Program-made: the position numbers and the translations under genes
The notes under the pieces: generated by a model
What the model was told of the DNA's origin: nothing
The model's input: only the letters and a program-made list of their open reading frames with translations
Database searches by the model: none
In this document: piece after piece, positions 4,578-47,578 of the stretch
Layout: every line of letters starts with the position of its first letter
How positions within the stretch are numbered: position 1 is the first letter of the stretch
Assembly: GCA_016201275.1 (NCBI GenBank)
Contig: JACQDB010000043.1
Location: 339 to 64,338, forward strand
DNA from: Acidobacteriota bacterium
GTDB taxonomy: Bacteria > Acidobacteriota > Blastocatellia > UBA7656
Direction of reading: 5' to 3'
Length of the DNA: 64,000 bases

Positions 4578-4598
4578 GACGCGAAGGAAGTAGGCCAA

Positions 4599-24595: not shown

Positions 24596-24603
24596 AAAAG
24601 ATT

Positions 24604-24673: not shown

Positions 24674-24676
24674 CAC

Positions 24677-29735: not shown

Positions 29736-29737
29736 AT

Positions 29738-33139: not shown

Positions 33140-33152
33140 GGAGCAGAAGCAA

Positions 33153-33470: not shown

Positions 33471-33531
33471 CGCGATGGGAACGATTTTTTTATCAAAGCG
33501 TGAAAGGAATGGTGTGCAGATATGAATGCCG

Positions 33532-34101
33532 TCATGGTCGGGCAATCAGGTTTGAGTAAATCACCCACTTGTCTTTGATCTTGCCGCCGACCAGCGTATA
33601 AACGTCAGTGCCGCCCGTTTCGTTCTGCGCTTTCCAGTTATGAAACAGGCTGCTGGGGGGGATTTTGTCCACCTCTACGCAGCGGTTGGGCGATTCATAA
33701 ACCAGGCGCGCAAAGGCAGAGACGTTGGAGCCGCCCAGAGCGCTCGACAGCATTTTATCTATGCTCTCGCGAGCTTTGGCGACAGCTTCATTCTGCTGCT
33801 TCTCTTTTTCGCTATAGACATTCAAATCTTTTTCAGTTTTGGCGAGTTGCGTTTTCAGAGCGGCGTTCTCGTTGGTCAGGCGAGTCTTTTCCGCCTCCGA
33901 TGAGGAATAAAGCGCGTAACTGGTGGACAGCAAAATAAGCGCGCCGACCAACGCCGCTGCGGTAAGCAACAACAGCAACAACAGCCAGCGCCGCTTGCCA
34001 GCTTCGTTCTGTTCAATCTGTTCGCGCAGCGTGTCAACGTCGTTCTGGGTATAAGTCCATGAACTTCGCGTGGATGATGAGGAGGATTTTTCTGTGGGCA
34101 T
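33532..34101 (-). CDS. Bitopic membrane protein with periplasmic coiled-coil and C-terminal NTF2-like-looking domain
   Basis: Ser-rich N-terminus, TM 'WLLLLLLLTAAALVGALILL', heptad region, conserved-looking C-terminus; no family assignable. Confidence 0.4.
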   Translation of the reverse strand: MPTEKSSSSSTRSSWTYTQNDVDTLREQIEQNEAGKRRWLLLLLLLTAAALVGALILLSTSYALYSSSEAEKTRLTNENAALKTQLAKTEKDLNVYSEKEKQQNEAVAKARESIDKMLSSALGGSNVSAFARLVYESPNRCVEVDKIPPSSLFHNWKAQNETGGTDVYTLVGGKIKDKWVIYSNLIARP

Positions 34102-34210
34102 AACGCTTCCTGCTTCCTGGGTGAAACGAATTTGTTGACAAGGGCAAGGGGGCCGAATCTTGGCGCGCTGAGAGTGTGGCTCAGGCGCTCGTCGTAAAAA
34201 TTTCTTCCGC

Positions 34211-34447
34211 TTATTTGAATTGGCCGAAGCGTTTCAGGAGCTTGTAAATATCTATTGCCGTGCTAAACAAACCTAAGATTAAACCGACCAGAAACCACAG
34301 GGGAGACGTAGCGAAATGATTGTCAGCCAGCCAACCCACATAGGCAGGCAAACCGATCATGAAGGGAATGGACAAGGCCAAACCTGCCGTCATCATAGCC
34401 TGACGCCAACTAATATCGCCCTTGGGTTTCTTATCCTCTTCCGTCAT
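34211..34447 (-). CDS. AtpZ/AtpI-like small 2-TM membrane protein
   Basis: ~78 aa, 'SWRQAMMTAGLALSIPFMIGLPAYVGWLADNHFATSPLWFLVGLILGLFSTAI' resembles the putative F0F1-ATPase 'gene 1' family; sits 24 nt downstream of nuoN. Confidence 0.4.
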   Translation of the reverse strand: MTEEDKKPKGDISWRQAMMTAGLALSIPFMIGLPAYVGWLADNHFATSPLWFLVGLILGLFSTAIDIYKLLKRFGQFK

Positions 34448-34498
34448 ATCCGTGCTGCTTCGATAATAGCGCAAGCAGCACGCCGATGCTACTCCGCA

Positions 34499-36157
34499 TC
34501 AGCGCGGCGGCGGCGCAGGTGATGGCATAGATTGGGGAGGCGATTTTGGCGCAGCGTGTTCCGCGCCGTCGTTTTGATAAACATAGGTCTTCGGGCCGGT
34601 GGCGGCCTTCTGCGTCAACGCAATCAATTGCTGTGGGAAAATGCCAATCAACAAGACAAACAAAGCCGCTGTCGCCAACGCAATGCGGAGCGGCCACGAT
34701 TGCATGACGGGCTGCATTTCGGTCTCCGCTTCGATGTACATGGCGCGAATAAAGCGCAAATAATAATACAAAGAAACCGCGCTCATCAGGACGGCGAGTA
34801 TCGCCAGTCGCACCAGCCACGGGTTGCCGGTTTCGATAAGTCCGGCGAACAAATAAAACTTGCCAATGAATCCGGCGGTCGGCGGTATGCCGCCAAGCGA
34901 CAGCAGAAAAATCGTCATCATCACCGTCAACCACGGCGCTTTTTTCATCAAGCCGTTCAAGTCTTCCATGCGGTCGCCAATGATGCCGCGTCTTCGCAGC
35001 GCGATGATGCAACCGAAGACGCCCAGATTCATCAAGGTGTAAATGAACAAGTAAATCACGAAGCCGGTGTAGCCGGTTTGATTGCCAGCGATGATACCGA
35101 GCAAAGTGTAACCGGCGTGCGAGATGGACGAATAAGCAAGCAGGCGCTTGGTATTGGTCTGGGTCAAGGCCGCCAGATTTCCCCACACGATGGTGATTGC
35201 CGAAACCACACCCAGCAACACCGCCCAGCCGGGAAGAGCGGGAAGGTGGCTCGTTGCATTGCCTTCAAGCGTGCCGCGCAAATCGGGCAGGCCGTACAAA
35301 AAGATGCGCCCGAACATAGCGAAGCTTGCGGCTTTGACCGCGACCGACATGAACGCGGTGATCGAAGTTGGCGCGCCTTCGTAAGCGTCCGGTGCCCACA
35401 TATGGAACGGCACCGCCGCCACTTTGAAGAACATCCCTGCGGCCATCAAAATCATGGACATCAACACCAAGTAACGCATATCCACGGCCTGACCGAGCGG
35501 TTGATAATTCGCGCCGATGACCACCGGCAAAGCTTTGGCGATGTCTGCCAGATTGGTCGAACCGGTCATGCCATAGACCATCGAAATGCCGTACAGCAAA
35601 ACGCCGGAAGAAAACGCGCCGAGGAGAAAATATTTCATCGCCGCTTCATTCGATCTCTGGTCGCGGCGCAGATAGCCTACGAGTATGTAAACCGAAATCG
35701 CCATCAATTCGAGGGCGATAAACAGCGTCAACAAATCCACCCCTGAAGCCATAAACATCATGCCGACGACGGCGAAAAGAATCAGCGCATAATACTCGCC
35801 GCGCTGTTCGCCTTCTTCGTCTAGATATTTTATGGAAAGCAAAATGGCGAGGAGCGCGCCAATCAGAAACATCATCTTGAAGACCACGGCATAAGGGTCT
35901 ATGACGATCATGCCAAAGAAACCGGCTTTGGCGCTGCTGCCCATCCCCTTGTACACGAAGATGAGCGAGACCAGCGAGACCAGCAAGCCCACTATGCTCA
36001 ACCAGGCGACGAGGAATTTTTGTTGGCGCGGCAACAGCACATCTATTACCAGCGCGGCACAGGCAAACAGCAGCAATAGAACTTCGGGCATAATGAGTTC
36101 TTTGGTCTGCTGCAAGATGACGGAAAGATCAGGCGATGTTTGTAAGAATGCGAACAT
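34499..36157 (-). CDS. nuoN: NADH-quinone oxidoreductase subunit N
   Basis: 14-TM antiporter-like subunit, 'FHMWAPDAYEGAPT', 'LLAYSSISHAGY'; Pro-rich C-terminal tail. Confidence 0.85.
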   Translation of the reverse strand: MFAFLQTSPDLSVILQQTKELIMPEVLLLLFACAALVIDVLLPRQQKFLVAWLSIVGLLVSLVSLIFVYKGMGSSAKAGFFGMIVIDPYAVVFKMMFLIGALLAILLSIKYLDEEGEQRGEYYALILFAVVGMMFMASGVDLLTLFIALELMAISVYILVGYLRRDQRSNEAAMKYFLLGAFSSGVLLYGISMVYGMTGSTNLADIAKALPVVIGANYQPLGQAVDMRYLVLMSMILMAAGMFFKVAAVPFHMWAPDAYEGAPTSITAFMSVAVKAASFAMFGRIFLYGLPDLRGTLEGNATSHLPALPGWAVLLGVVSAITIVWGNLAALTQTNTKRLLAYSSISHAGYTLLGIIAGNQTGYTGFVIYLFIYTLMNLGVFGCIIALRRRGIIGDRMEDLNGLMKKAPWLTVMMTIFLLSLGGIPPTAGFIGKFYLFAGLIETGNPWLVRLAILAVLMSAVSLYYYLRFIRAMYIEAETEMQPVMQSWPLRIALATAALFVLLIGIFPQQLIALTQKAATGPKTYVYQNDGAEHAAPKSPPQSMPSPAPPPR

Positions 36158-36176
36158 AGTTTCTCTTGTTGATGAA

Positions 36177-36325
36177 CTTGTACGGGCGACCCTGCGGTGG
36201 TCGCCCCGGCTTTTGAATTTTGTAGTTTCAAAAGCTCATTGAAAACATTGATGCGATAAGATCGCACGCTTTGAAATCATTTTGAATTTTAATGAGGGAC
36301 GACCACCGCAGGGTCGCCCGTACAG
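36177..36325. repeat. ~29-bp inverted repeat (tgtacgggcgaccctgcggtggtcgcc / ggcgaccaccgcagggtcgcccgtaca) spanning the nuoN-nuoM spacer
   Basis: Arms at ~36177-36207 and ~36296-36325, ~90-nt loop. Confidence 0.55.
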
Positions 36326-36329
36326 TAAA

Positions 36330-38150
36330 TTACTTTGCCTGGCTCTCGACTTCCACAGGCGTAGGCTCACTGATTTTGCTTCCGGTCTTAGTGCTTTGCG
36401 GCATCAATTCGTTGGCAGACTTTTCTTCCGCCATCTTCGGTTCTTCGGGCAGCTTGAAATAATTGGGATCAATCTGCACGACCACCGCTTCGGTCTGCGG
36501 GTTGATGTACGACAGCAACGGTTTGGGATAGATGCCGATCCAGAAAATCAACACGATGAGCGGCGCAAACTGCCACGCTTCTCGCGCATTCAAATCGGGC
36601 AGCGTTTTATTTTTGTCGTTGGTGACGGCACCGAAAAAGACTCTTTGATAAAGCCACAACATATACGCAGCGCCCAAAATAATGCCTACGGTGGCCAGCG
36701 CGCCCCACGTCGCTTTGGCTTCAAACGCGCCTCGCAATACTAGAAACTCGCCGATGAAATTGTTCATCAAAGGCAAGCCCAGCGACGATAGCGTGACGAT
36801 TAAAAAGATTGTCGAGTAGATCGGCATGACCGAGGCCAGGCCGCCAAACTCGGCGATCTCGTAGGTGTGGCGGCGTTCGTAAATCAGACCGGCCAGCATA
36901 AACAGCGCCCCCGTAGAGATGCCATGATTAATCATCTGCATCACCGCGCCGTTGATGCCGTTCGGATTCAAGGCGAACAAACCCAGCATCACAAATCCCA
37001 GATGTGACACCGACGAATAGGCCACCAGTTTCTTAATATCTTTTTGCGCCATCGCCACCAGCGCGCCGTAAATGATGCCGATGATGGCCAACGTAATCAT
37101 CCAGAAACGCACTCGCGGATGCGTCGCCGCATCGGGAAATATCGGCAGCGAAAATCGCATGAAGCCATACGTTCCCATCTTCAGCAAGATGCCCGCGAGG
37201 ATGACCGAGCCTGCCGTGGGCGCGTCGTAGTGGGCGTCCGGCAACCACGTATGAAAGGGGAACATCGGCACTTTGATGGCGAACGACAAGGCAAAGCCTA
37301 CGAATAACCAGATGACTACATTGATACCGAAGACCGTTTTGATGTGCGGCCCGATAGCCGTCAAGGCGGCGATGTTGAACGACGAACGCACATAACTTGA
37401 TGGCAGCGATTTGTTGTCCACGTCTTTGCCATCCACGCGCCGCATAGCGTCTTCGACCAGCTTTCGCATGGCGCTGTTTTCCTGTCCGGTTTCATGATTG
37501 GTGGCGTATTGACGGGCGGTTTCCAGCACCAAACCTTTTTGCGATTTGACGACATCAGGAAAGATGAAGAAGAGTTTTAACACCGCCAAGAGCATCACCA
37601 CGGAACCGACCAAGGTGTAGAGGAAAAATTTAATCGCCGAATAGAGGCGATTTTTGCCGCCCCATATGCCGATCAAAAAGTACATAGGCACGAGCATCAC
37701 TTCCCAAAAGATGAAGAACAGGAAAAGGTCTGCCGAGGCAAACGCGCCAATCATGCCGGTCTGCAACAACAGCAGCATGATGTAGTATTCTTTTTCGCGG
37801 CCTTTGTCGCGGATGTACGACCAAGAGCAGACCGCCGCGATGACGCCAAGCAAAGTGGTCAGCATGATTAAAATCACCGACAAGCCATCAACCGCCACTT
37901 GATAACGCGTTCCGATGATCGGTATCCACTCGAAGTCTTCAATGAATTGCAAACCACCGAGCGCCCGGTCATAGCCCTTGATGCTGCTGCCGAATCCGGT
38001 AATGAGCGGAATCGAAACCACAAAGCACAGTCCCATCCAGAGATTGGCGAACCAGCGAATCGCATCGTTTTTGCTCTTGTTAAATAAGAGTAAGAGGATT
38101 GCCCCAAGCGCCGGCAACCACGTCACCCATGAAAGAATGCCTATCTTCAT
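36330..38150 (-). CDS. nuoM: NADH-quinone oxidoreductase subunit M, with ~70-aa hydrophilic insertion
   Basis: 'HTWLPDAHYDAPT', 'KKLVAYSSVSHLGFV'; 606 aa vs ~500 typical; insertion 'KSQKGLVLETARQYATNHETGQENSAMRKLVEDAMRRVDGKDVDNK'. Confidence 0.85.
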   Translation of the reverse strand: MKIGILSWVTWLPALGAILLLLFNKSKNDAIRWFANLWMGLCFVVSIPLITGFGSSIKGYDRALGGLQFIEDFEWIPIIGTRYQVAVDGLSVILIMLTTLLGVIAAVCSWSYIRDKGREKEYYIMLLLLQTGMIGAFASADLFLFFIFWEVMLVPMYFLIGIWGGKNRLYSAIKFFLYTLVGSVVMLLAVLKLFFIFPDVVKSQKGLVLETARQYATNHETGQENSAMRKLVEDAMRRVDGKDVDNKSLPSSYVRSSFNIAALTAIGPHIKTVFGINVVIWLFVGFALSFAIKVPMFPFHTWLPDAHYDAPTAGSVILAGILLKMGTYGFMRFSLPIFPDAATHPRVRFWMITLAIIGIIYGALVAMAQKDIKKLVAYSSVSHLGFVMLGLFALNPNGINGAVMQMINHGISTGALFMLAGLIYERRHTYEIAEFGGLASVMPIYSTIFLIVTLSSLGLPLMNNFIGEFLVLRGAFEAKATWGALATVGIILGAAYMLWLYQRVFFGAVTNDKNKTLPDLNAREAWQFAPLIVLIFWIGIYPKPLLSYINPQTEAVVVQIDPNYFKLPEEPKMAEEKSANELMPQSTKTGSKISEPTPVEVESQAK

Positions 38151-38280
38151 CGAAGTCTCCTAAGAAGCTAGTTTGTATTCAGAATAATTGCCACGCTTCA
38201 GCCTGATAGAATTTGAAAGACCGATATAGCAAGGGTTCGCACCATGACAGACATCTGACAATCTGCCTCGGAGGGGCAAA

Positions 38281-38446
38281 GGAGATTAGCCAGTGGTGCA
38301 GCCACTGGAAAAGAATCGCCCCTTAGAATTATTTAGCCCGGAAAGGGCGATAGAAAACCAGCTTTCATCTTTCATCCCGCGCCCCTTCAGGGCGCGATTG
38401 ATTACGAAGGCTTTCGTCCAGTGGCTGCACCACTGGCTAATCTCCA
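38281..38446. repeat. Perfect 28-bp inverted repeat ggagattagccagtggtgcagccactgg / ccagtggctgcaccactggctaatctcc in nuoM-nuoL spacer
   Basis: Arms 38281-38308 and 38419-38446; ~110-nt loop containing a second palindrome cgcgccccttcagggcgcg. Confidence 0.6.
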
Positions 38447-38577
38447 TCGCGCTTTCAGCGCGAACACAAAGCTCTATCTCTTTTCAAAGACCTTGGCTGA
38501 AAATTTCAAGTACCTAAAACGGCTCGAAAGATTAAAACGAAAATCAAACAGCAAAAACGGCGATAAGCAAAGCCACA

Positions 38578-40995
38578 TCACTTCGCCCCGAACAAGCCTT
38601 TGAGGGTCGCAGAGATCGCCGGATAAATGTAAAACGCCACAATGATAAACAAGCCCAGCGTAAAGACCAGCACATAGTTTTGCCAGAAGCCGGTTTGAAA
38701 AGTACGCAGCACCAGCGACCCGCCTTTGCTGATCCACCCCGTCGCGTTGACCAATAAATCAATCACGTATTTGTCCCACAGATTGCTCAGACGCGCCCAC
38801 AAACGGGTCAACGCGCCCGCACCGTTTACGCCGCCATCCACCACCGTCGCGTCCACCGCCCACAAAGCGTTGTTGACGACTTTACCTGCTGCTACGCCTT
38901 TTACGTCGAGCAAGTAATCCCAATACCACTTGTTGAAACTGAGTTTGTACAGCGGCTGCAATTTCGCGCCCCACGCTTTCGCCAGTCCGGGTTTATCTAA
39001 ATAAAAAACTTTTGCCAGATACATACCAAGCAAAGCGACGAGTACGGAAGCCATCATCAAAATAAGTTCGAGCATCTGGAACGGTTTGTGTTCGCCTTCT
39101 TCGTGCGTTGCTTGCGAGGTTGCTTGCGCTTCGCTGGCAGTAGATTCAGCAGCGTTGTGCGCTTCACTGGCAGTGGTTTGCGGCGTGCCATGCGCTTCGA
39201 CAGTGGCGGTCGTGGCGTGTTGCGGTGTGGCGTGAACTTTTTCAATCACCGGATCAAGCCAATGCTCGAAGGCACTGGCGTGCGGAATACCAAGCAGCCC
39301 TATGAAAAGCGAGAAAGCCGCCAGCACGATTAACGGAATCGTCATGCTCTTGGGCGATTCGTGCGGCTCAAAATGATGATGCGCGGCGGTGTGCGTAACA
39401 AAGGGATCGCTGGCGTCTTTCGCGCCGACGTGTTCACCTGGTTGATGATGCGGACGGTCGCCTGCCGAAGCGGTCACGGCGTCGTGCGGTTTCAAATCCT
39501 TATCGTAAGCGGCAGCGTGCGCTTCGTCGGCCTCGCCACCTGCGTGAACTTTGCGAAAGCGCTCTTCGCCCCAGAACGTCAAAGCCATCAAGCGCGTCAT
39601 GTAAAACGCCGTGATGCCAGCGGTGAACAAGCCGACAATCCACAAAATTTTCGCGCCGCCGAAGCGCGTTGTATCAAAGGTATTCCAGAGAATTTCATCT
39701 TTCGACCAGAAGCCTGCCCATAGGGGAATGCCGCAGATGGCTAGCCAGCCCATCAGCATGGTCTTGTAAGTCGTCGGCAGATATTTTTTCAAGCCGCCCA
39801 TGCGCGGCATCTCCTGTTCGTGGTGCATACCATGTATGACCGAACCGGAGCCGAGGAAAAGCAGAGCTTTGAAAAAAGCGTGGGTGAAGACGTGAAAGAT
39901 AGCGGCTACGAAAGCGCCTACGCCTGCGCCTAAAAACATAAAGCCGAGTTGCGAGACCGTCGAATAAGCGAGAACTTTTTTGATGTCGGTTTGCGTGATG
40001 CCTATGGTTGCGGCGATGAATGCCGTCAAACAACCGACCACCGCGACCACCATCATCATGGTCGTCGAGCGTTGAAAAAAGAAATTGGTGCGCGTCACCA
40101 TAAAGACGCCTGCGGTCACCATAGTCGCCGCGTGTATCAAGGCAGACACCGGCGTGGGGCCTGCCATAGCGTCCGGCAACCAGATGAATAAAGGAATCTG
40201 CGCGCTCTTGCCGGTCGCCCCGATGAACAAGCCCAGCGCAATCCAACTCATCAAACCGAACGCGCCCAGCGCTTCCGGCGGATAGGCTTTCGCCAGTGCC
40301 GCCAGATCATGAAACTGCAAAGTGCCGAACATAGCAAAGACGCCAAAGATGGCCAGGGCAAAGCCTAAATCGCCTATGCGGTTGACGACGAAAGCTTTTT
40401 TGGCGGCGTCGCCCGCTTCCTGTCGGTTGATGTAATAGCCGATCAGCAGGTAGGAACATAATCCCACGCCTTCCCAGCCGACGAACATAATCATGAAGTT
40501 CGATCCCATCACCAACAGCAGCATCATGAACATAAACAGATTCAGGTACGAGAAGAAGCGATAGAAGCCGGGGTCGCCGTGCATATAGCCGGTCGCGAAG
40601 ATGTGAATCAAAAAGCCTACGAAGGTGACGACGAACATCATGACCAGCGAGAGTTGGTCTATTTGATAGCTCCACTCGATATTGAAATTCGCCAGCTTGC
40701 CTTTGTCTGCGCCTTGCGTGAGATGAGCGCGTCCGCCAGGCATCCAGGTAAAGCTGAAGCCGCCGGGTTCTTTGCTTGTGATATAAGGCTTGTCTGCGTT
40801 GTTGGGATTGAAACTGGTTTTGTATTCCACGAATGCGCCTATGGTAATCAACAGCGACAGCCCGATGACACCGCAGGCAATCCACGACACGACCTTTTCG
40901 CTGAGGTGCAGTTTTTTGCCCAAGAGAAAATTGATAAGGAAACCCAACAGTGGAAAGACAGGAATCAGCCAGACGAGTTTTAACATAATAGTCAT
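38578..40995 (-). CDS. nuoL: NADH-quinone oxidoreductase subunit L, with ~150-aa His/Ala/Thr-rich insertion
   Basis: 'WLPDAMAGPTPVSALIHAATMVTAG'; 805 aa vs ~610-650 typical; insertion region 'EADEAHAAAYDKDLKPHD...HHHFEPHESPK...HATPQHATTATVEAHGTPQ'. Confidence 0.85.
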   Translation of the reverse strand: MTIMLKLVWLIPVFPLLGFLINFLLGKKLHLSEKVVSWIACGVIGLSLLITIGAFVEYKTSFNPNNADKPYITSKEPGGFSFTWMPGGRAHLTQGADKGKLANFNIEWSYQIDQLSLVMMFVVTFVGFLIHIFATGYMHGDPGFYRFFSYLNLFMFMMLLLVMGSNFMIMFVGWEGVGLCSYLLIGYYINRQEAGDAAKKAFVVNRIGDLGFALAIFGVFAMFGTLQFHDLAALAKAYPPEALGAFGLMSWIALGLFIGATGKSAQIPLFIWLPDAMAGPTPVSALIHAATMVTAGVFMVTRTNFFFQRSTTMMMVVAVVGCLTAFIAATIGITQTDIKKVLAYSTVSQLGFMFLGAGVGAFVAAIFHVFTHAFFKALLFLGSGSVIHGMHHEQEMPRMGGLKKYLPTTYKTMLMGWLAICGIPLWAGFWSKDEILWNTFDTTRFGGAKILWIVGLFTAGITAFYMTRLMALTFWGEERFRKVHAGGEADEAHAAAYDKDLKPHDAVTASAGDRPHHQPGEHVGAKDASDPFVTHTAAHHHFEPHESPKSMTIPLIVLAAFSLFIGLLGIPHASAFEHWLDPVIEKVHATPQHATTATVEAHGTPQTTASEAHNAAESTASEAQATSQATHEEGEHKPFQMLELILMMASVLVALLGMYLAKVFYLDKPGLAKAWGAKLQPLYKLSFNKWYWDYLLDVKGVAAGKVVNNALWAVDATVVDGGVNGAGALTRLWARLSNLWDKYVIDLLVNATGWISKGGSLVLRTFQTGFWQNYVLVFTLGLFIIVAFYIYPAISATLKGLFGAK

Positions 40996-41095
40996 TAGTC
41001 CTTAGTCCTTAGTCCCTAGTCCTTAGTCTTCAGTTAAAGGTTTCGGCTCGTGAAAGCATTTAACTAAGGACTAGGGACTAAGGACTAAGGACTAA
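40996..41095. repeat. Intercistronic tandem-heptamer hairpin (AGTCCTT x5 / AAGGACT x4) between nuoK stop and nuoL start
   Basis: tagtccttagtccttagtccctagtccttagtcttcag ... ctaaggactagggactaaggactaaggactaa. The left arm abuts the nuoL start codon (40993-40995) and the right arm ends 1 nt from the nuoK stop. Confidence 0.7.
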
Positions 41096-41096
41096 A

Positions 41097-41579
41097 CTAA
41101 AATTTCAGTAAATCAATTTCGTCAATCGCTATGGTTTCGCGGTTGCGGAACAGCGCGATGACGATGCCCAAGCCGACGGCGGCTTCTGCAGCGGCGACAA
41201 CAATGATGAAAATGGTAAAGACCGGCCCGGCCAACGGGTTGACGGTCATACCGGCGCTTTTGAATGCTGTATTGAACGCTTCCTGATTGATTTGAAAGTA
41301 GCGCGAGAACGCGATCAGGTTCAGATTAACCGCGTTCAAAATTAATTCGATGGACATGAAAATGATGATGATGTTGCGGCGCGATAACACTCCGGCGACG
41401 CCTACGACGAAGAGCAGAAAACTCAACATCATGAAATTGACCAGCGTCGGCTCGAAGCGTTCCAGATTCGGCCAGACATACTTGTACGAAACGAAGCCAA
41501 CCGCACCTAAGAAAAGTACGGTGAAGATAAGGTTCGGGAGGTTGTCGCGTGAAAAGAATTTTTTAAGTCCAGAGGGCAT
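41097..41579 (-). CDS. nuoK: NADH-quinone oxidoreductase subunit K with N-terminal extra TM extension
   Basis: Canonical NuoK core from '[16 protein letters not shown]...[15 protein letters not shown]'; upstream in-frame ATG at 41579 has a GAGGAG SD at 9 nt, supporting the 160-aa form with an additional helix '[16 protein letters not shown]'. Confidence 0.8.
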
Positions 41580-41617
41580 TTATCCTTACTCCTCAATGGG
41601 TGAAAACCGAACTGCTG

Positions 41618-41688
41618 AGTTTGGCGTGCCGCCTGCAAGCGGTTGCTGCGGCTTTCAGGAAAACCGCCTGTAGGCGGCACGCCAAACT
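41618..41688. repeat. Inverted repeat gtttggcgtgccgcc / ggcggcacgccaaac in nuoK-nuoJ spacer
   Basis: 15-bp perfect core, arms extend imperfectly to ~25 bp. Confidence 0.55.
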
Positions 41689-41749
41689 TTTCTGTTTAAT
41701 CATGGCCAATGAAACGGCGTTGCGATTGCCCGGCGCGGCCTTAGCAGCC

Positions 41750-42349
41750 TTATTCGCTGGGTTCGTAAAGCTTCTCTTGTTTGGTGCCGCGAGCCAACAA
41801 CACCGCGCCCACCATTGCTACCAGCAACAACACCGAAGCGATTTCAAACGGCAAGGCGGCTTCTTTGTAAAGCGATTGGCCTACCTCTTGAGTGTCGGTG
41901 GAAATCTGCGAGCCAGCGCCTGACTTGGTGGATTCCGCTGGCGCTTCTTTGCTTTGCGCGGCGGCCTCGGAAGGCTGCGGGCGAAATGCCGGTTGCGCCG
42001 AATTCATGGCAAAGAAAAACGACACCGCCAATAGCAAAGTAAGCATCACCGCTGGCCACATCTGCCCGGTGTAGAGTTTTACTTTCGCCTCTTCTTCGGC
42101 GCGGGTCTGCACCAACATGATGACAAACAGAAACAGCACCATCACGCCGCCTACATAAACCAGTATCTGCACACCAGCGACAAATTCGGCGCGCAGCAGG
42201 ATGAACAACAAGGCGATGTTGACCAGCGTTGAAATCAGAAAGAGAGCCGAATGCACGGCCAATCGCGCCGACACCACCAACACGCCCATGATGAGCGTTG
42301 AAAATGCCAGCACATAAAACAGCACTGCTTCCCAACCGTGTAATTGCAT
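41750..42349 (-). CDS. nuoJ: NADH-quinone oxidoreductase subunit J
   Basis: 5-TM ND6-like; 'MQLHGWEAVLFYVLA...'; hydrophilic A/S/E-rich segment before last helix. Confidence 0.8.
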   Translation of the reverse strand: MQLHGWEAVLFYVLAFSTLIMGVLVVSARLAVHSALFLISTLVNIALLFILLRAEFVAGVQILVYVGGVMVLFLFVIMLVQTRAEEEAKVKLYTGQMWPAVMLTLLLAVSFFFAMNSAQPAFRPQPSEAAAQSKEAPAESTKSGAGSQISTDTQEVGQSLYKEAALPFEIASVLLLVAMVGAVLLARGTKQEKLYEPSE

Positions 42350-42350
42350 C

Positions 42351-42452
42351 GTAGTCCTTAATCCTTAGTCCTTAGTCCTTAGTTCCCTTTCTTTGATATT
42401 CAGGTCGGTGGCAGATTTCTCTCACCGACTAATGACCAGGGACTAAGGACTA
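42351..42452. repeat. Intercistronic tandem-heptamer hairpin between nuoI stop and nuoJ start
   Basis: gtagtccttaatccttagtccttagtccttagttccc ... gactaatgaccagggactaaggactat; the right arm overlaps the nuoI TAG; nested 7-bp stem gtcggtg/caccgac inside the loop. Confidence 0.7.
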
Positions 42453-42995
42453 TTTCGTGTACTTGACGTAGCTGATGCCTTTTTCGAGCATCTCGCGGTC
42501 CCAACGAAAGCCTGAGCGATGATAGACGGCAAGCTCGAAACCTTGAGTCAATTCTAGGCAATCCGTTGGGCAGGCTTCCGAACAGAGATTGCAAAACATA
42601 CAACGCGAGGTGTCGAAGGTAAACGTCGTCAGCACTTTTTTCTTGTTCACCTTTGCGCCATCGCGCACTTCGCGGCGAATCGAACCGACATCTATGCAGT
42701 CCACCGGACAGGCCAGCGCGCACAGGTCGCAAGCGATGCACAAGGTGCCGCCGGTTTCCGGGTCAAGGTTCAAACGCGGCGCGCCTCGGTAACGCTCCGA
42801 CACTCGCGCCGCCTCAAGCGGGTACTGCTCGGTGTAGAGCGCTTGATGCGGATTGCCGCCATCGCGTTTTTCATACAGAGCGCGAATATTATATTTGAAG
42901 GTTACGGCCAGACCCTTGAAGAGGTCTAAAAGTAACAGCCGTTTGATAATGCCGGAGAAACTGCGCTTTCTTCCGGCTACGTTTATTGCTGGCAT
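42450..42995 (-). CDS. nuoI: NADH-quinone oxidoreductase subunit I (2x[4Fe-4S] ferredoxin)
   Basis: 'CIACDLCALACPVDC' and 'CMFCNLCSEACPTDC'. Confidence 0.9.
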   Translation of the reverse strand: MPAINVAGRKRSFSGIIKRLLLLDLFKGLAVTFKYNIRALYEKRDGGNPHQALYTEQYPLEAARVSERYRGAPRLNLDPETGGTLCIACDLCALACPVDCIDVGSIRREVRDGAKVNKKKVLTTFTFDTSRCMFCNLCSEACPTDCLELTQGFELAVYHRSGFRWDREMLEKGISYVKYTK

Positions 42996-43077
42996 AATTC
43001 ACCTACTTACAAAAAACCAAACTTGATAGCGCAAAAAACCATTGGTTGATGCGAATCGTTAATCACAGAATCCGTTT

Positions 43078-43245
43078 TTGCGGCTCTGCCGCTTTGAGAT
43101 GCGGAAAGGCTCGGACTTTCCGGCAAGGCGACAGGAACGCTTCAACGGCTACGCCGCCAATTGGGGCGCAGCCCCGAAACCTTTCAACGAATCCTCCGGC
43201 GGGGCAAAGCCACCGCCGCACATCAAAGCGGCAAAGCCGCCTGAC
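43078..43245. repeat. Diverged third copy of the palindromic MITE-like element (see 55700 and 57131)
   Basis: gccgctttgagatgcggaaaggc ... ccgcacatcaaagcggcaaagccgc mirrors the core gccgctttgaggtgcggagaggc ... ccgcacctcaaagcggcatagccgc of the other copies. Lies in the 345-bp nuoI-nuoH spacer. Confidence 0.5.
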
Positions 43246-43340
43246 GCTTTGACACAGAACCCCTAACAGGAAGGCGTTGGTTTATCAATCGGAAATCGCC
43301 GCTTAACCCTGATTCAAGAATGCGGCGCTCAATCTTAAAC

Positions 43341-44705
43341 TTATTCCGCTGCTTCGGCGTTTTCCATCTTTTTCAAACGCTCGCGGCGCAACTTGAATTG
43401 TAACTGGCGCTGCTCGTCGAGATTGAAATCATTGGAGCGCCGATTGATTGCCGCAAGCAGCGCCCAGACCATTGGAACCGTAATGAGAAAACCTGTAGCT
43501 ACGAAATAGATAACGCCTGCCCACTGGGTTGGCACTAATCGCCCACTCACATCTTTCATGAAATTAAATCTCAAGAAAAATTTTAGAAAGTCCGGGAGTG
43601 AGGCTTTTGTACTAGGCAATGCAAGCACATACCAGATAGCGGTCATCACGATGTTTGCGAGTCCCGCCGGAATCATCCACTTCCAGCCAATCTCCATCAA
43701 CTGGTCGTAGCGATAACGCGGCCACGTCCAGCGTATCCACATGAAAGCGTAAATCAACACCATCACCTTCGTGGCGAAAATAACGATGCTCAAAAAGACG
43801 AACAGATTGGGCGAAGACTTTTCGATAAGGCTCAGGCCGGGAAACGACCAGCCGCCCAGATAAAGTGTCACGGCAATCGAAGAGGTGACAATCATCGCGG
43901 TGTATTCCGCCATAAAAAACAGCGCCCAGCGAAAGCCCGAATACTCGGTGTGATAACCGGCGACGAGTTCCGATTCGGCTTCCGGCAAATCAAAAGGTGC
44001 GCGATTGGTTTCGCCTAACGCGCAGATGACGTAAACCAGAAAGCCCAGCGGTTGAAAGAAGAAATACCATACGCCATCGGCGCGTTGCGCTTCGACAATG
44101 CCATTCATCGAAAGCGTGCGCGCAAACATCAAGGCTCCGATAATCGAAAGCCCCATGCCGATTTCATAACTCAACATCTGCGCCGACGAACGCAATGCGC
44201 CAAGCAGTGAATACTTCGAGTTGGAAGACCAACCGGCCAACACCAACCCCAACACCGCGACCGACGAAACCGCCAGAATAAACAGCAGGCCAATGTTGAC
44301 GTTGGCAATCGTTCCCCAGCCTGCGCCCCACGGCACCACCGCAAGAACGACCAGAGCGGCGACCACGGCGATAATCGGCGCGAGTTGAAAAATCGCTTTG
44401 TCGGCTTTAATCGGGATGATGTCTTCTTTGAGCAGCAGTTTCAAACCATCGGCAGCCGGTTGCAAAAGTCCCCAAGGGCCTACGCGCATAGGGCCAAGCC
44501 GCGCCTGCATGAAGGCCGACACCTTGCGCTCCAGATAAACCAGATAGGCAACCAGGGTCAAGATGATGAACAGCACCACGATGATTTGAATGAGCGGCCA
44601 GACGATGTACTCCGACCAAAAGACATTCGGCTGTTTCTCTTTGGTGAGATATTCTCGCACCCATTGCGGCGCAACCAGGAGTAATGTCGAAAGTATAGCT
44701 GTCAT
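43341..44705 (-). CDS. nuoH: NADH-quinone oxidoreductase subunit H, with ~80-aa C-terminal extension
   Basis: 'EAESELVAGYHTEYSG' signature; 454 aa vs ~330-350 typical; extra C-terminal TM + basic coiled tail. Confidence 0.9.
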   Translation of the reverse strand: MTAILSTLLLVAPQWVREYLTKEKQPNVFWSEYIVWPLIQIIVVLFIILTLVAYLVYLERKVSAFMQARLGPMRVGPWGLLQPAADGLKLLLKEDIIPIKADKAIFQLAPIIAVVAALVVLAVVPWGAGWGTIANVNIGLLFILAVSSVAVLGLVLAGWSSNSKYSLLGALRSSAQMLSYEIGMGLSIIGALMFARTLSMNGIVEAQRADGVWYFFFQPLGFLVYVICALGETNRAPFDLPEAESELVAGYHTEYSGFRWALFFMAEYTAMIVTSSIAVTLYLGGWSFPGLSLIEKSSPNLFVFLSIVIFATKVMVLIYAFMWIRWTWPRYRYDQLMEIGWKWMIPAGLANIVMTAIWYVLALPSTKASLPDFLKFFLRFNFMKDVSGRLVPTQWAGVIYFVATGFLITVPMVWALLAAINRRSNDFNLDEQRQLQFKLRRERLKKMENAEAAE

Positions 44706-44717
44706 AATAATCCAAGT

Positions 44718-44832
44718 GCTGAGGACTGAGGGCTAAGGACTGAGTAAGAAATTAGACGCAAGCTATCAGGTTTGCGATTTGCCAATCATTGCAGACAAGT
44801 TTTTCACTCAGTCCTCAGTCCTCAGTCCTTTA
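44718..44832. repeat. Intercistronic hairpin, GACTGAG/CTCAGTC heptamer variant, between nuoD stop and nuoH start
   Basis: gctgaggactgagggctaaggactgagtaag ... cactcagtcctcagtcctcagtccttta; right arm includes the nuoD TAA. Confidence 0.65.
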
Positions 44833-45963
44833 TCTATCAACTTCGCCTAAAACGATGTCAATCGTTCCGATAATTGCCACCACATCGGCAACCAGATGGC
44901 CTATGGACATTTTCTTCAACGCCTGTAGATTAATGTATGAAGGCGGACGGATACGCATACGATAGGGTTTGCCGGTTCCGTCGCTCACCAGGTAAACGCC
45001 GATTTCGCCTTTGGGCGCTTCTATCGAATGATAGATTTCGCCGACCGGCGGCTTGATAATCTTCGGCACTTTCGCCATCACCGGCCCTTCCGGCAAACCA
45101 TCGAGCGCCTGTTCGATGATACTGAGCGATTGCCGCATCTCTGCCATGCGACAAAGATAGCGGTCATAAGTGTCGCCGTTTTCGCCCACCGGAATTTCAA
45201 AATCGAAATCGGCATAAGCCGCATACGGTTGCGCTTTGCGTATGTCGTATTTGACGCCCGAACCGCGCAGTACGGGGCCGGTCAAACTCAAATTGATAGC
45301 GTCTTCGGCAGACAACACGCCTATGCCAACGGTGCGGCTCAACCAGATACGGTTGCTGTTTAACAGCGTTTCATATTCATCAATGCGAGTGGGCATCATC
45401 TTCAAAAATTCTTTGACGCGATCAACGAATTCCGGGTAGGCGTCCCATTGCAGACCGCCGATGCGGAAAGCGTGTGCGGTGAGCCGTGCGCCGATGAAGT
45501 CTTCAAAGATTTTTAAGATCTCTTCGCGTTCGCGGAAACAGTAGAGCAAGACCGTCACCGCGCCTATATCAATGGCGTGCGTACCAAGCCACAACAGATG
45601 CGAAGCGATGCGCTGCAATTCAGTCAGGGCAACGCGCAGATATTGCGCGCGACGCGGCACTTCGACCTGCAATAATTTTTCTACGCCCTCGACGTAACAC
45701 AAATCGTTGGAGACGGCGGCGACATAATCGAGCCGATCCCAATAAGGCGTGATCATTTGATAGGTGTCGTGTTCGGCAATCTTTTCCACACCGCGATGCA
45801 GATAGCCGATGTCACAATCGAGGTCGGTTACGGTTTCGCCGTCGAGTTTTAAGATGACGCGCAACACGCCGTGCGTCGAAGGATGCTGCGGCCCCATGTT
45901 CAGCACCATCTCTTCGGCGTCGAGCAGCGTTTCGTGCGGTTTAATCGCTTCCTGGCTTTGCAT
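44830..45963 (-). CDS. nuoD: NADH-quinone oxidoreductase subunit D (49-kDa)
   Basis: '[14 protein letters not shown]', 'GYLHRGVEK', C-terminal 'GEVDR'. Confidence 0.9.
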
Positions 45964-45969
45964 AAGTAT

Positions 45970-46065
45970 GAGTCCTTAGTCCTCAGTCCTTAGTCCTCAG
46001 CTTGTCGTCACACGCTTTCGTTCGAGCGAATAACTAATGACCAGGGACTAAGGACTAGGGACTAA
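45970..46065. repeat. Intercistronic tandem-heptamer hairpin between nuoC stop and nuoD start
   Basis: gagtccttagtcctcagtccttagtcctcag ... taactaatgaccagggactaaggactagggactaa; the right arm is near-identical to that of the 42351 hairpin (ctaatgaccagggactaaggacta). Confidence 0.7.
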
Positions 46066-46068
46066 AAT

Positions 46069-47106
46069 CTATCTGCGTTGGGCGTATTTCACATCAATCA
46101 AACTGGTATCATAATCCACTTCGCGATAGTCAATGTGTTTATCCGTCCACTCGTTGTCGCGGTATTCAATCGGATACTCTTTGCGAAGCGGATAGCCCGG
46201 CCAATCTTCGGGCAACAGTATGCGCCGCAAATCCGGGTGGCCGTCAAATTTTACGCCGAACATATCAAAGACTTCGCGCTCCATCCAATTCGCGCCTGCC
46301 CAAATTGAGGTGACGCTGGGCGCGGCTTCGCCTTCAGCAATCGCCGTCTTGACGCGCAGGCGTTGATTTTTGGATACCGAATATAAATTGGCCACGATGT
46401 CAAATTCCGCGCCAGTTTTGTCTGGCCAGTGCAGTGCCGTCAAATCGGCGCACATGGTAAACGCGCCGTCTTCGTCATCGTGCAGGAAGCGGCACAGTTT
46501 CAAATACGCATCTTTGTTGACGCGAATGATGCGTTGTCCGAAGGTCTTGACGGTTTCGGTGATGGCGTCGGGGAATTTGGCTTTGAGTTTATCAATGAAG
46601 GGATCGTCTTTAATCTCTTCGGTGACGGTTGGCCCTTTTTTAGCAGGCGGCGCGGGTTTGGCAGCGCCCGCCGTAGCGGCTGATGCAGGCGCTTTGGGCG
46701 GCGCGGCGGCTTTCGGCGGCGCAGGCTTTGCGGCAGCTTCCGGCTTGGCTGCGGCATCAGCGGTGGGCGCTTTTGCTTCAGCGCTCGGCGTTGCTTCTGC
46801 TTTTGCTTCAGCGCTCGGTGCGGCGACTTTTGCAGGGACTTCGGGTGTTGCCGGTGCTGTCGGTTTTTCGGTTGCGGCTACAGTCGAAGTTTCGGCCAGA
46901 CTATCGGCAGTCGTATTGCCTGGGCTGGCGCTGGCTTCGGGTTGAGTTTCGCTTGGTGTTTCAGTGGGTAAAGTAGGTGCGGCGACGTTGGCCGGTTGAG
47001 CGGTTGAAGCAACCTCGGCCTCAACCGTTTTCGCGTCCGTCGGTTCAGCATTCTCCGGGACTTCCTGCGTATCTTTGCTTTCGTCTGACATAATGGCAAC
47101 CTGCAT
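46069..47106 (-). CDS. nuoC: NADH-quinone oxidoreductase subunit C (30-kDa) with ~170-aa N-terminal Ala/Pro/Thr/Glu-rich low-complexity extension
   Basis: C-terminal half 'GANWMEREVFDMFGVKFDGHPDLRRILLPEDWPGYPLRKEYP' is canonical; N-terminal half is compositionally biased (PTAPATPEVPAKVAAPSAEAKAEATPSAEAKAP...). Confidence 0.85.
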   Translation of the reverse strand: MQVAIMSDESKDTQEVPENAEPTDAKTVEAEVASTAQPANVAAPTLPTETPSETQPEASASPGNTTADSLAETSTVAATEKPTAPATPEVPAKVAAPSAEAKAEATPSAEAKAPTADAAAKPEAAAKPAPPKAAAPPKAPASAATAGAAKPAPPAKKGPTVTEEIKDDPFIDKLKAKFPDAITETVKTFGQRIIRVNKDAYLKLCRFLHDDEDGAFTMCADLTALHWPDKTGAEFDIVANLYSVSKNQRLRVKTAIAEGEAAPSVTSIWAGANWMEREVFDMFGVKFDGHPDLRRILLPEDWPGYPLRKEYPIEYRDNEWTDKHIDYREVDYDTSLIDVKYAQRR

Positions 47107-47578
47107 ACTCGCGCACCTTGAAACCTCTAGGGCGCGGAAAAATAGTTACGGTATTGATGACTACTCGCTATTTGAAAAGCTGCTGGAAAATAACTCTGCT
47201 TCTTGACGCAGATGCTTTTAGCATAGGCTTGAAAGCCTTGTCAATCTCAGCCCCAAAACTAGGGCGATTGCAAAGTTGGGTAAGAACGAAAAATTCAGCA
47301 GACCAGTGCGGGCGTACCTCCGTGTGCGCCCCTTGATGAATCCGCGAATCATTGCAGTAGTCGCCCATACCAGTTGGCACTTGATTTCAGCCACCATCAT
47401 CAGGCAGACAGCCGAGCCATGCCGGTCTCGCTATAAAAAGGCAGGCACACAAACTGGCAGTGTAAAGGAGCAAAGGATGAGACGGGTTCGCCGAATCACA
47501 GCCATAGGCGGGTGCGGCGAATCCGCTCAATTGGTGGTCTATACAGATAGACGCTACGCCTCGCTTGATCTTCAAGCC

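Follow-up and report, generated by a model that had tools for sequence, protein, structure and literature searches.

A class-wide nuoCDHIJKLMN cluster without nuoA and nuoB in Blastocatellia: a probable split 11-subunit-type complex I with lineage-specific extensions

The nuo cluster described here is best read as a NuoEFG-less complex I of the 11-subunit type whose nuoA and nuoB genes have been displaced from the operon and are encoded elsewhere, and which likely takes electrons from a donor other than NADH; we put the probability of this reading at roughly 75%. The cluster lies in a 64-kb stretch of DNA (the window) from a metagenome-assembled genome (MAG) of the class Blastocatellia (Acidobacteriota), the host being described as a soil acidobacterium. 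Nine genes, nuoC-D-H-I-J-K-L-M-N, occupy positions 34499-47106 of the minus strand and were each matched by Pfam (Table 1). Their products comprise NuoC, NuoD, and NuoI of the Q module and, apart from NuoA, the full set of membrane subunits (NuoH, J, K, L, M, and N). The nuoD gene is directly followed by nuoH, and the 124 bp spacer between the two leaves no room for nuoEFG. The cluster does not represent a new system; it encodes an unusual form of a known enzyme.

Table 1. Features of the nuo cluster and its flanks (positions in the window).
Feature	Position	Strand	Details
hemY-like gene	47579-48964		upstream neighbour of nuoC
hemY-like gene/nuoC spacer, non-coding	47107..47578	.	472 bp, no nuoA/B-like ORF
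nuoC (30-kDa subunit)	46069-47106 (ORF); 46069..47091 (from second Met)	-	PF00329
NuoC N-terminal low-complexity extension	46627..47091	-	~155 aa, composition 0.81 APTEKS
nuoD (49-kDa subunit)	44830..45963	-	PF00346, E=5.7e-106
nuoH	43341..44705	-	454 aa; PF00146, E=1.9e-123
NuoH C-terminal extension	43344..43613	-	~90 aa; linker, extra TM helix, conserved motif
nuoI	42450..42995	-	181 aa; two [4Fe-4S] clusters; Fer4 families
nuoJ	41750..42349	-	199 aa; PF00499, E=2.1e-40
nuoK	41097..41579	-	160 aa; PF00420, residues 49-159
NuoK N-terminal extension	41433..41579	-	~49 aa; one extra hydrophobic helix, residues ~14-32
nuoL	38578..40995	-	805 aa; PF00361, PF00662, PF01010
NuoL conserved insert, GGEADEAHAAAYDKDLKPHDAVTASAGDRPHHQPGEHVG	39424..39540	-	39 aa; TM14-TM15 loop, His/Asp/Glu-rich
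NuoL second insert	39094..39228	-	~45 aa; between TM15 and lateral helix
nuoM	36330..38150	-	606 aa; PF00361
NuoM insertion	37320..37568	-	loop before TM7; ~52 aa beyond Paracoccus NuoM
nuoN	34499..36157	-	552 aa; PF00361, E=1.9e-74
Hairpin of tandem heptamers, (TAGTCCT)n vs (AGGACTA)n	40989..41095	-	fills nuoK-nuoL spacer
Similar heptamer-type hairpins	45971-46065; 44719-44829; 42352-42452		
Other inverted repeats	41618-41688; 43080-43240; 38276-38450; 36179-36324		

The catalytic subunits are conventional. NuoD carries the canonical quinone-site His/Tyr motifs, including DRLDYV (by sequence and alignment), and aligned to solved NDUFS2/Nqo4 chains with E=1e-109 to 1e-119 (up to 3.5e-119 against NDUFS2). 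Its C-terminus reads DIVLGEVDR, with no NiFe Cys motif. A group-4 membrane-bound hydrogenase or Mrp-Mbx type of complex was ruled out, given that NuoD lacks the [NiFe]-binding CxxC motifs and that NuoJ and NuoK fall into families typical of complex I (PF00499 and PF00420). Both CxxCxxCxxxCP motifs are present in NuoI (CIACDLCALACP and CMFCNLCSEACP). Among the antiporter-like subunits, NuoM keeps the conserved TM5 Glu, TM7 Lys, TM8 Lys, and TM12 Glu when aligned to 8qby_M (motifs FWEVMLVPM, FAIKVPMFPFHTWLPDAH, LLKMG, and IGEFL), and NuoL retains TM15, the lateral helix, and TM16, aligning piecewise to NdhF1 and Nqo12 (the C-terminal region to NdhF1 residues 473-622, with a PF01010 match); NuoN and the NuoL core were checked by Pfam and E-value. 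Of the original prediction of a "divergent 11-subunit-type or split" complex I, the subunit type and the split layout stand, while "divergent" overstates the case because the catalytic residues are canonical.

Neither nuoA nor nuoB was found anywhere in the 64-kb window, in agreement with the predicted gene content of nuoCDHIJKLMN without nuoA, nuoB, or nuoEFG. The NuoB signature (CCxxE plus GCPP) occurs in no frame of the window, acidobacterial NuoA and NuoB used as tblastn queries returned nothing in it at E<1e-3, and no intergenic spacer of the cluster holds a NuoA-like ORF. The spacer upstream of nuoC contains only short ORFs (≤72 aa), none hydrophobic in the manner of NuoA, and a 105-aa plus-strand ORF (47276-47593) extends from it into the hemY-like gene. 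This spacer is presumably the promoter region; a simple scan of it found no good sigma-70-type promoter. Inverted repeats are a further feature of the spacers between the genes, with intercistronic RNA folds of -41 to -63 kcal/mol (z-scores of -5.7 to -11.3).

The layout is not a local accident. All of the ~29 related Blastocatellia loci examined share nuoCDH(I)JKLMN without nuoA or nuoB, and neither gene was present in the upstream sequence covered, which spanned 1-10 kb (for most loci the whole 10 kb), so that the split is conserved across the class. NuoA queries gave no tblastn match in these loci, and nuoI was kept in most and not detected in two (L022 and L028). Protein, cluster, and contig look-ups did not locate the Blastocatellia nuoA and nuoB; among the NuoB matches listed, the gene contexts were Terriglobia-like or belonged to other lineages, NuoB being too conserved for matches to be ranked by lineage.

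Other Acidobacteriota show what the ancestral arrangement may have been. The cluster is orthologous to complete 11-gene nuoABCDHIJKLMN operons in three loci of the phylum (L081, L056, and L057; NuoD 64-69% identical), which bears out its predicted assignment to the 11-subunit type. Two loci are intermediate in that foreign genes separate nuoB from nuoC: one reads nuoAB-[PF02636 methyltransferase]-nuoCDHIJKLM, after which a truncated gene runs into the end of the contig (L082), and the other has nuoAB 3 kb upstream of nuoC (L054). In the sister class Terriglobia, the orthologous cluster (NuoD ~70% identical) is nuoA..CDHJKLMN, likewise with small subunits encoded away from the main operon (PMC6018796), and nuoB is a stand-alone gene beside a small Rieske gene (L084-87, L089-91). 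This orphan nuoB agrees with Hausmann et al. (2018, ISME J, Table S2b, PMC6018796), who list Terriglobia nuoB and nuoI on "other" scaffolds. The window nevertheless shows another way of splitting this orthologous operon: in Terriglobia, nuoA stays at the head, and nuoB and nuoI are missing from most sampled loci, whereas Blastocatellia lack both nuoA and nuoB and retain nuoI in most. Terriglobia also lack the Blastocatellia insertions in NuoH, NuoK, NuoM, and NuoL. A Terriglobia-type split cluster was accordingly rejected for the window, which has no nuoA and carries nuoI between nuoH and nuoJ. In a widespread Terriglobia lineage, nuoB is followed by genes for ferredoxin and 2-oxoacid:ferredoxin oxidoreductase (OFOR), a group that lies divergent from nuoACDHIJKLMN (L088, L092/L093). 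The hint of a ferredoxin donor comes from this linkage, that is, from another class.

The cluster could also be a paralogous, partial second copy, with a complete nuo operon elsewhere in the genome (nuoA, nuoB, and perhaps nuoEFG), in which case its products would either draw on the subunits made there or build an alternative membrane arm. In the sister class, acidobacterial MAGs do have several nuo clusters, one of them with nuoEFG, and several nuoB copies per genome (PMC6018796, Table S2b). However, the closest relatives outside Blastocatellia are single, complete 11-gene operons, which marks the cluster as orthologous to an enzyme complete in itself, not as a spare arm, and a genome scan, which detects close relatives only, returned one NuoD locus per Blastocatellia MAG; no second operon turned up among the loci covered. 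We regard a second copy as unlikely.

The extensions of NuoH and NuoK bear on a different possibility. What had been predicted as a C-terminal tail on NuoH is a real extra segment but not a simple tail, as it contains a TM helix (hydropathy peak at residues ~402-420) and a basic, highly conserved motif, INRRSxDFNLxEQRQLQxxLRRERL, beyond the part of the protein (residues 36-358) that aligns to Nqo8 and NuoH structures. This extension is conserved in every Blastocatellia locus, is absent in L081, L082, L056, Terriglobia, and Neomarinimicrobiota, and has no match to Pfam or NuoA. The extra N-terminal helix proposed for NuoK, with a GAGGAG Shine-Dalgarno sequence upstream of its ATG (upstream sequence ttGAGGAGtaaggataaATG), was likewise found across the class: the frame is open and the peptide conserved upstream of the canonical TM1 in the Blastocatellia loci covering nuoK, in which apparent GTG/TTG starts give products of 141-170 aa, and the extension is absent outside the class. 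One could suppose that NuoA has truly been lost, its three helices being replaced by these two additions, with only nuoB supplied in trans. In the sampled lineages, the loci without a nuoA at the head all have both extra helices and those with nuoA have neither; however, this co-occurrence reflects a single clade and is thus possibly one event. Furthermore, neither extension resembles NuoA or contains its conserved PYECG loop, and, to our knowledge, NuoA (NdhC/FpoA/ND3) is kept in all characterized complex I enzymes. Extra NuoH helices also coexist with NuoA in other bacteria, as Nqo8 of Thermus thermophilus and NuoH of Mycobacterium smegmatis have a ninth, non-conserved C-terminal helix (the helix count being that of the 4HEA structure). 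NuoH residues 400-424 gave a weak local match to residues 356-380 of 8e9g_H, but the Blastocatellia extension has its own motif (INRRSxDFNLxEQRQ) and no significant similarity to the Thermus and Mycobacterium helices. We consider the loss of NuoA highly improbable. The same degree of doubt attaches to a NuoA-less enzyme in which the NuoH and NuoK helices take its place where the membrane arm meets the quinone site and the NuoL loop acts as a distal metal- or proton-handling site, which, if true, would amount to a minimal complex I with a re-engineered structure.

The remaining additions differ in how well they are conserved. Across the subunits, four extensions are conserved (NuoH, NuoK, NuoM, and the first NuoL insert), and the NuoC N-terminus and second NuoL insert are variable. 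The insertion predicted in NuoM was recovered, its size being corrected from ~70 to ~52 aa relative to Paracoccus NuoM (residues 195-277 correspond to residues 186-216 of 8qby_M); in close Blastocatellia it is conserved and has no low-complexity character, the 74% group has a shorter version, and outside the class it is missing. NuoN ends in the expected C-terminal tail, ~35 aa long and rich in Pro/Ser/Ala.

In NuoL, the extra sequence had been described as a single His-rich insertion of ~150 aa; it is real but falls into two inserts flanking a canonical TM15, of which only the first, a stretch of ~55 aa that separates TM14 from the conserved HxxPHESP motif, contains a His-rich core that is conserved. 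This 39-aa core is present in the window and eight related loci (L001, L002, L009, L011, L014, L017, L018, and L079) and absent from L003, L004, L012, L013, L016, L032, and the 74% group. In most pairs, 12-22 of its 39 codons differ synonymously and 4-6 non-synonymously (8-11 in pairs with L011 or L079), with ~10-14 non-synonymous differences of 55 in the flank, a pattern from which we take the loop to be under strong purifying selection. Only 17 matches were found among 1.84 billion representatives, and the 14 that were read all carry the insert at the same NuoL site. The loop would be periplasmic, and its selection and confinement to one site sharpen the hypothesis that it may bind metal or dock a partner. 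The second insert, which shows up against NdhF1 as an alignment gap from query residue 587 to 635, is low-complexity (Ala/Thr/Glu/Gln/His-rich) and varies in length and sequence among relatives.

NuoC was predicted to carry a ~170-aa Ala/Pro/Thr/Glu-rich N-terminus; the extension is genuine, but the upstream start is probably not, and the shorter stretch given in Table 1 begins at 47091. The ORF is open to 47106, with its first ATG five codons before the second Met. The latter (MSDESKD...) is the likely start, giving 340 aa, because the MxDExKD N-terminus is conserved in relatives and an NCBI protein of 340 aa (P0144) is 100% identical to NuoC from 47091. The extension is rich in Ala/Pro/Thr/Glu/Lys/Ser, is bounded by the conserved MxDExKD head and KPAPPAKKGP motif, and precedes the PF00329 match (residues 194-315, E=1.4e-44). 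It measures 77 to 185 aa in close relatives; for most other Acidobacteriota the figure is 19-47 aa, with longer examples of up to 80 aa (Terriglobia L026) and ~120 aa (Pyrinomonadaceae L079). In an AF2 model, residues 1-155 have no secondary structure (pLDDT ~50, against >90 for the core), and the stretch is predicted to be disordered.

It is hardly credible that the extensions are artefacts of misassigned start codons, of frameshifts, or of translating low-complexity non-coding DNA: in NuoC the first ATG probably precedes the true start by five codons, the first ATG of nuoK in most relatives yields only ~106 aa, and the NuoC N-terminus and second NuoL insert are low-complexity and variable, but the extensions are internal or in-frame with frames open in ~25 genomes, the four conserved ones hold at the amino-acid level despite many synonymous changes, the long NuoC is also in the NCBI annotation, and its conserved head sits upstream of the variable spacer. 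Sequencing frameshifts, raised as a possible refutation of the original prediction, are excluded, since all extensions stay in frame in relatives.

Under the displaced-gene reading that we favor, the nine subunits would form part of a proton-pumping quinone reductase native to Acidobacteriota, in which, in Blastocatellia, nuoA and nuoB moved away from the head of an ancestral nuoABCDHIJKLMN operon. Both are presumably transcribed elsewhere in the genome, the enzyme being assembled from the two loci. As no NADH-oxidizing module is encoded at the locus, the most likely course is that electrons enter at NuoI from a donor other than NADH, which is probably reduced ferredoxin, and travel through cluster N2 of NuoB to quinone at the NuoD/NuoH site, powering proton pumping by NuoL, M, and N. 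Onto this core, the lineage would have gained a ninth TM helix and basic motif in NuoH, a fourth TM helix in NuoK, the ~52-aa NuoM loop, the long disordered NuoC spacer, and, in some lineages only, the 39-aa NuoL loop.

Such an enzyme resembles known systems. In cyanobacteria and chloroplasts, the donor to NDH-1 is ferredoxin. This NDH-1 (PDB 6HUM, 6NBY) likewise has 11 core subunits without NuoEFG, and among structures its NdhF1 matches the NuoL sequence best (E=5.7e-122); however, no homologues of its oxygenic-specific subunits (NdhL-V, NdhS) were seen here, and the cyanobacterial genes are scattered in a different pattern. Another is the NuoEFG-less 11-subunit NDH-1 described for Chlorobi and Ignavibacteria as a proposed user of ferredoxin or another non-NADH donor (PMC3362086) and also found in Bacteroidota and others, which has the same subunits apart from A and B, the same nuoD-nuoH order, and no NADH-oxidizing module. 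The Blastocatellia version differs in having nuoA and nuoB outside the operon and lineage-specific additions to six subunits.

For the Blastocatellia, which are abundant in soil, most statements on energy metabolism are inferences from automated annotation. Tools that assess module completeness and look for nuoA-N in a single cluster will rate the complex I of these bacteria as incomplete, a misreading that recognition of a class-wide conserved split of an 11-subunit enzyme prevents. The NuoH helix and motif, the NuoK helix, and the NuoM and NuoL loops are targets for structural and mutational studies of how complex I tolerates and uses accessory elements, and the nuoB-ferredoxin-OFOR linkage in Terriglobia gives a testable lead on what feeds NuoEFG-less complex I, a question that has long been open.

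The nuo cluster comprises nine consecutive genes recognized with Pfam (nuoC, D, H, I, J, K, L, M and N), all on the minus strand. The nuoD and nuoH genes are separated by 124 bp, and therefore no nuoEFG lies between them. The 472-bp spacer 5′ of nuoC holds ORFs of at most 72 a.a, none hydrophobic, along with the start of a 105-a.a plus-strand ORF that extends into the hemY-like gene; past this spacer come two genes, one for a flavin oxidase resembling HemY and one for a radical-SAM protein resembling HemN. The NuoB signature (CCxxE plus GCPP) occurs in no frame of the 64-kb window, acidobacterial NuoA and NuoB used as tblastn queries gave no match to it, and the small ORFs present in the nuoH-nuoI and nuoL-nuoM spacers include none that is NuoA-like. 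Pfam scanning of 29 of the ~33 other large ORFs, all but the four at the 3′ end of the window, returned ordinary housekeeping genes and no nuo gene. The Pfam assignments, signature scan, tblastn searches and short nuoD-nuoH spacer thus bear out the original prediction of an operon devoid of nuoA, nuoB and nuoEFG; the chance it had allowed, that nuoA and nuoB lie just beyond the nuoC spacer, is answered by their absence across the window in the signature scan and tblastn. In a sigma-70 scan, the minus strand of the 472-bp spacer held nothing promoter-like and the plus strand a single site, and sites overall were no more numerous than in shuffled sequence; an Rfam scan of positions 33000–48000 gave no match. 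Three long ORFs lying within nuoC or nuoN, antisense to them or in another frame, were rejected as by-products of composition bias, since the true minus-strand genes have strong Pfam support.

As far as can be judged from sequence, the enzyme is intact. NuoD carries the His and Tyr motifs of the quinone site and none of the [NiFe] cysteine motifs, NuoI has both ferredoxin-type cysteine motifs, NuoM keeps the TM5 Glu, TM7 Lys, TM8 Lys and TM12 Glu, and NuoL keeps TM15, the lateral-helix region and TM16. A decaying remnant is excluded, as all nine genes are intact at high identity in ~25 genomes.

A NuoD scan restricted to one genome per species returned at least 80 loci. Among the 80 listed, NuoD was 86–95% identical in 21 Blastocatellia MAGs, 73–74% in a second Blastocatellia group, 71–72% in the Blastocatellia-type loci L022, L028 and L079 (the last from Pyrinomonadaceae), ~70% in many Terriglobia loci, and 47–57% in Neomarinimicrobiota, Fidelibacterota and others; the window NuoC matches the NCBI MAG protein P0144 at 100% identity. 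The order nuoC-D-H-(I)-J-K-L-M-N recurs in every Blastocatellia locus compared, with neither NuoA nor NuoB found within 1–10 kb upstream (10 kb in most). Since all of these loci share the same layout, the absence of nuoA and nuoB from this operon is not a local accident. In L022 and L028, nuoI was not detected, and the nuoH-nuoJ interval of L022 is too short to hold it.

Relatives outside the phylum (NuoD 51%) have nuoA-nuoB immediately 5′ of nuoC, and complete nuoABCDHIJKLMN operons also occur within the Acidobacteriota (L056, L057 and L081; NuoD 64–69% identical to that of the window). Two further acidobacterial loci are intermediates between complete and split operons: in L082, a single PF02636 methyltransferase gene lies between nuoB and nuoC, and in L054, a PF02636 gene is joined there by a ligase-like gene. 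PF02636 (Methyltransf_28) is the family of NDUFAF7, the eukaryotic complex I assembly factor that methylates the NuoD homologue, and the copy inserted in some 11-subunit operons of the Acidobacteriota is a candidate bacterial counterpart with a tie to complex I. In the orthologous cluster of the Terriglobia, nuoA is kept ~0.5–1.5 kb 5′ of nuoC in most loci, nuoB is lacking, and nuoI is also missing from most. The arrangement "nuoACDHJKLMN" is that of Hausmann et al. (2018; PMC6018796), whose Table S2b places nuoB and nuoI on other scaffolds. The acidobacterial 11-gene operon is thus broken at differing points in different classes. The Blastocatellia, which have lost A and B from the operon and mostly retain I, add a further variant to these split forms. 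We also noted that the small subunits lost from the operon differ among lineages, that the Terriglobia loci L025–L051 have no detected nuoI and leave no space for one in the nuoH-nuoJ interval, and that several Terriglobia NuoH proteins contain an internal insertion (~420 a.a for ~345 aligned query residues).

Solitary nuoB genes were seen directly in Terriglobia-like contigs, with a small Rieske gene adjoining in L084–86 and L089–91. Tetranucleotide correlation assigned L084, L086–L088 and L091 to the Terriglobia, with L088 backed by gene identity, and was ambiguous for L089 and L090, whose synteny (DUF1501/DUF1800) is shared with Terriglobales. In another widespread Terriglobia lineage (L088, L092 and L093), nuoB lies divergent from nuoACDHIJKLMN, preceded by a UbiE-like methyltransferase gene and followed by a gene for a small ferredoxin and then by three for 2-oxoacid:ferredoxin oxidoreductase (OFOR). 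All NuoB contexts seen fell into three classes: full 11-gene operons from other lineages, orphan nuoB genes of Terriglobia-like type with the Rieske gene alongside, and nuoB-ferredoxin-OFOR. No Blastocatellia NuoB was found among the best 120 matches listed to either the L054 NuoB or the database protein P0346, as NuoB is so conserved that other acidobacterial lineages fill these lists. Because cluster N2 of NuoB has an essential role in complex I, and given the precedent in the sister class, nuoA and nuoB are probably encoded elsewhere in Blastocatellia genomes.

Most likely, the enzyme would be a proton-pumping quinone reductase fed by ferredoxin or another non-NADH donor, its subunits coming from this operon together with nuoA and nuoB supplied in trans. 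The case for a non-NADH donor draws on the lack of nuoEFG, on the literature proposing ferredoxin or another such donor for 11-subunit enzymes (PMC3362086), and on the Terriglobia nuoB-ferredoxin-OFOR linkage, a context clue that ferredoxin may feed the NuoEFG-less enzyme. The operon could instead be a partial paralogue that shares NuoA and NuoB, and perhaps NuoEFG, with a second operon, which we consider unlikely.

Several subunits are longer in the window than in the canonical operon L081: NuoC (340 vs. 210 a.a), NuoH (454 vs. 365), NuoK (160 vs. 100), NuoL (805 vs. 685), NuoM (606 vs. 529) and NuoN (552 vs. 497). NuoC orthologues across the Acidobacteriota share an MxDExK start and a basic Pro-rich KPAPPAKKGP motif just ahead of the fold, between which the close Blastocatellia proteins carry a variable Ala/Pro/Thr/Glu/Lys/Ser-rich stretch of 77–185 a.a; translation of the window gene likely begins at the second Met. 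In an AlphaFold model (45 homologues), residues 1–155 had no structure (pLDDT ~50) and the core was confident, so that the N-terminal stretch is predicted to be a disordered spacer. The NuoH extension is real, yet more than the plain C-terminal tail first described: the last ~90 residues run from a linker through an additional TM helix (peak of hydropathy at 402–420) to the motif INRRSxDFNLxEQRQLQxxLRRERL. The extension is conserved across the Blastocatellia groups and lacking from the other loci compared. Extra C-terminal helices are precedented in subunit H of Mycobacterium smegmatis and of Thermus. Hydropathy and conservation at the amino-acid level within Blastocatellia confirm the extra N-terminal helix of NuoK (an extension of ~35–49 a.a with one hydrophobic helix), whose ATG follows the predicted GAGGAG Shine–Dalgarno (SD) sequence in the window and is replaced by an apparent GTG or TTG in relatives. 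The NuoM insertion likewise exists, at ~52 a.a rather than ~70; it lies ahead of TM7 and is conserved and not low-complexity. The NuoN tail is present as a short low-complexity segment, and an Ala/Glu/Ser-rich stretch was seen in a NuoJ loop. The extension peptides gave nothing significant in Pfam scans or in BLAST against NuoA and NuoB. Conceivably, NuoA has truly been lost and the extra NuoH and NuoK helices stand in for it, as these helices and the absence of nuoA co-occur perfectly; however, the co-occurrence stems from one clade, and we regard such a replacement as very improbable.

The single ~150-a.a His-rich NuoL insertion of the original prediction proved to be two inserts, either side of the canonical TM15. 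The first holds a 39-a.a core, GGEADEAHAAAYDKDLKPHDAVTASAGDRPHHQPGEHVG, adjoining an HxxPHESP motif that NuoL proteins normally have. Nine of the genomes compared, one of them a Pyrinomonadaceae MAG, carry the core, and six close relatives lack it. For most pairs, 12–22 of its 39 codons differ synonymously and only 4–6 non-synonymously (8–11 in pairs with L011 or L079), a stronger constraint than in the adjacent helices. Searched exhaustively with phmmer, 1.84 billion representatives yielded 17 matches, and all 14 of those read place the core at the same NuoL site. The second insert (~45 a.a) is variable and low-complexity. The known NuoL topology, in which the lateral helix is cytoplasmic, would put the conserved His/acidic loop in the periplasm and the second insert in the cytoplasm; the His/acidic loop may bind metal or act as a proton antenna. 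That the extensions are artefacts is the least probable alternative, contradicted by the conservation of these segments among relatives.

A strong hairpin occupies every intercistronic spacer of the operon. Four consist of tandem heptamers, (TAGTCCT)n facing (AGGACTA)n, with arms of up to 32 nt that are 100% complementary and RNA folds of −41 to −63 kcal/mol (z-scores −5.7 to −11.3); in the nuoK-nuoL hairpin, SD-like AAGGA repeats lie along the 3′ arm, which ends at the nuoL ATG. Five relatives (L001, L004, L007, L012 and L018) have heptamer-repeat arrays with a different heptamer per genome, and in L001, the one inspected, these fold back into hairpins within the nuoJ-K and nuoK-L spacers. 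To us, they recall the cyanobacterial STRR repeats. The other four spacers hold non-heptamer inverted repeats (arms of 25–34 nt, 88–97% complementary). The nuoH-nuoI and nuoL-nuoM spacers measure 345 and 427 bp vs. ~45–80 bp in L001, which suggests that they hold inserted elements.

Elsewhere, the window encodes a 2-oxoacid acyltransferase (E2)/2-oxoglutarate dehydrogenase E1 fusion, whose OdhA/Kgd-type architecture has been described in Corynebacterium and Mycobacterium. It also holds a type II restriction-modification pair and genes for three PQQ/BamB-like beta-propeller proteins. Two ORFs 3′ of nuoN matched no Pfam family and gave faint coiled-coil-type matches; for the 189-a.a ORF, tblastn found no match in the ~0.7 kb visible 3′ of nuoN in relatives.

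Coordinates of features in the window and in homologous loci
Sequence	Feature	Positions	Strand
Window	nuoC-D-H-I-J-K-L-M-N	34499-47106	-
Window	Heptamer hairpins, nuo spacers	40989-41095, 42352-42452, 44719-44829, 45971-46065	
Window	Further heptamer hairpin	2398-2467	
Window	Non-heptamer inverted repeats	41618-41688, 43080-43240, 38276-38450, 36179-36324	
Window	Rejected ORFs	46370-46945, 34532-35746	+
Window	Rejected ORF	34431-35186	-
Window	E2-E1 fusion, 1303 a.a	12070-15981	-
Window	PQQ/BamB-like proteins, 448, 523, 759 a.a	22182-28524	-
Window	Iron-containing alcohol dehydrogenase, among these	23456-24595	
Window	Heptamer tandem repeats, same region	23236-23265, 24601-24636, 26181-26221	
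Window	C-5 cytosine DNA methylase (PF00145), then BsuBI/PstI-family endonuclease	28707-30652	+
Window	ORF, 550 a.a	31487-33139	+
Window	ORF, 189 a.a	33532-34101	-
Window	Four large 3′-end ORFs	57500-63853	
L088	nuoB-ferredoxin-OFOR	9182-13750	
L092	nuoB-ferredoxin-OFOR	9183-13744	
L093	nuoB-ferredoxin-OFOR	543-5102	
L082	PF02636 gene	3887-4936	
L054	PF02636 gene	6042-7016	

Taken as a whole, the operon is not a new system: both its enzyme type and its kind of fragmentation are known, and what the lineage adds is a genuine variant of each, conserved among its members. It is of use for annotation and as a source of a few good structural targets.
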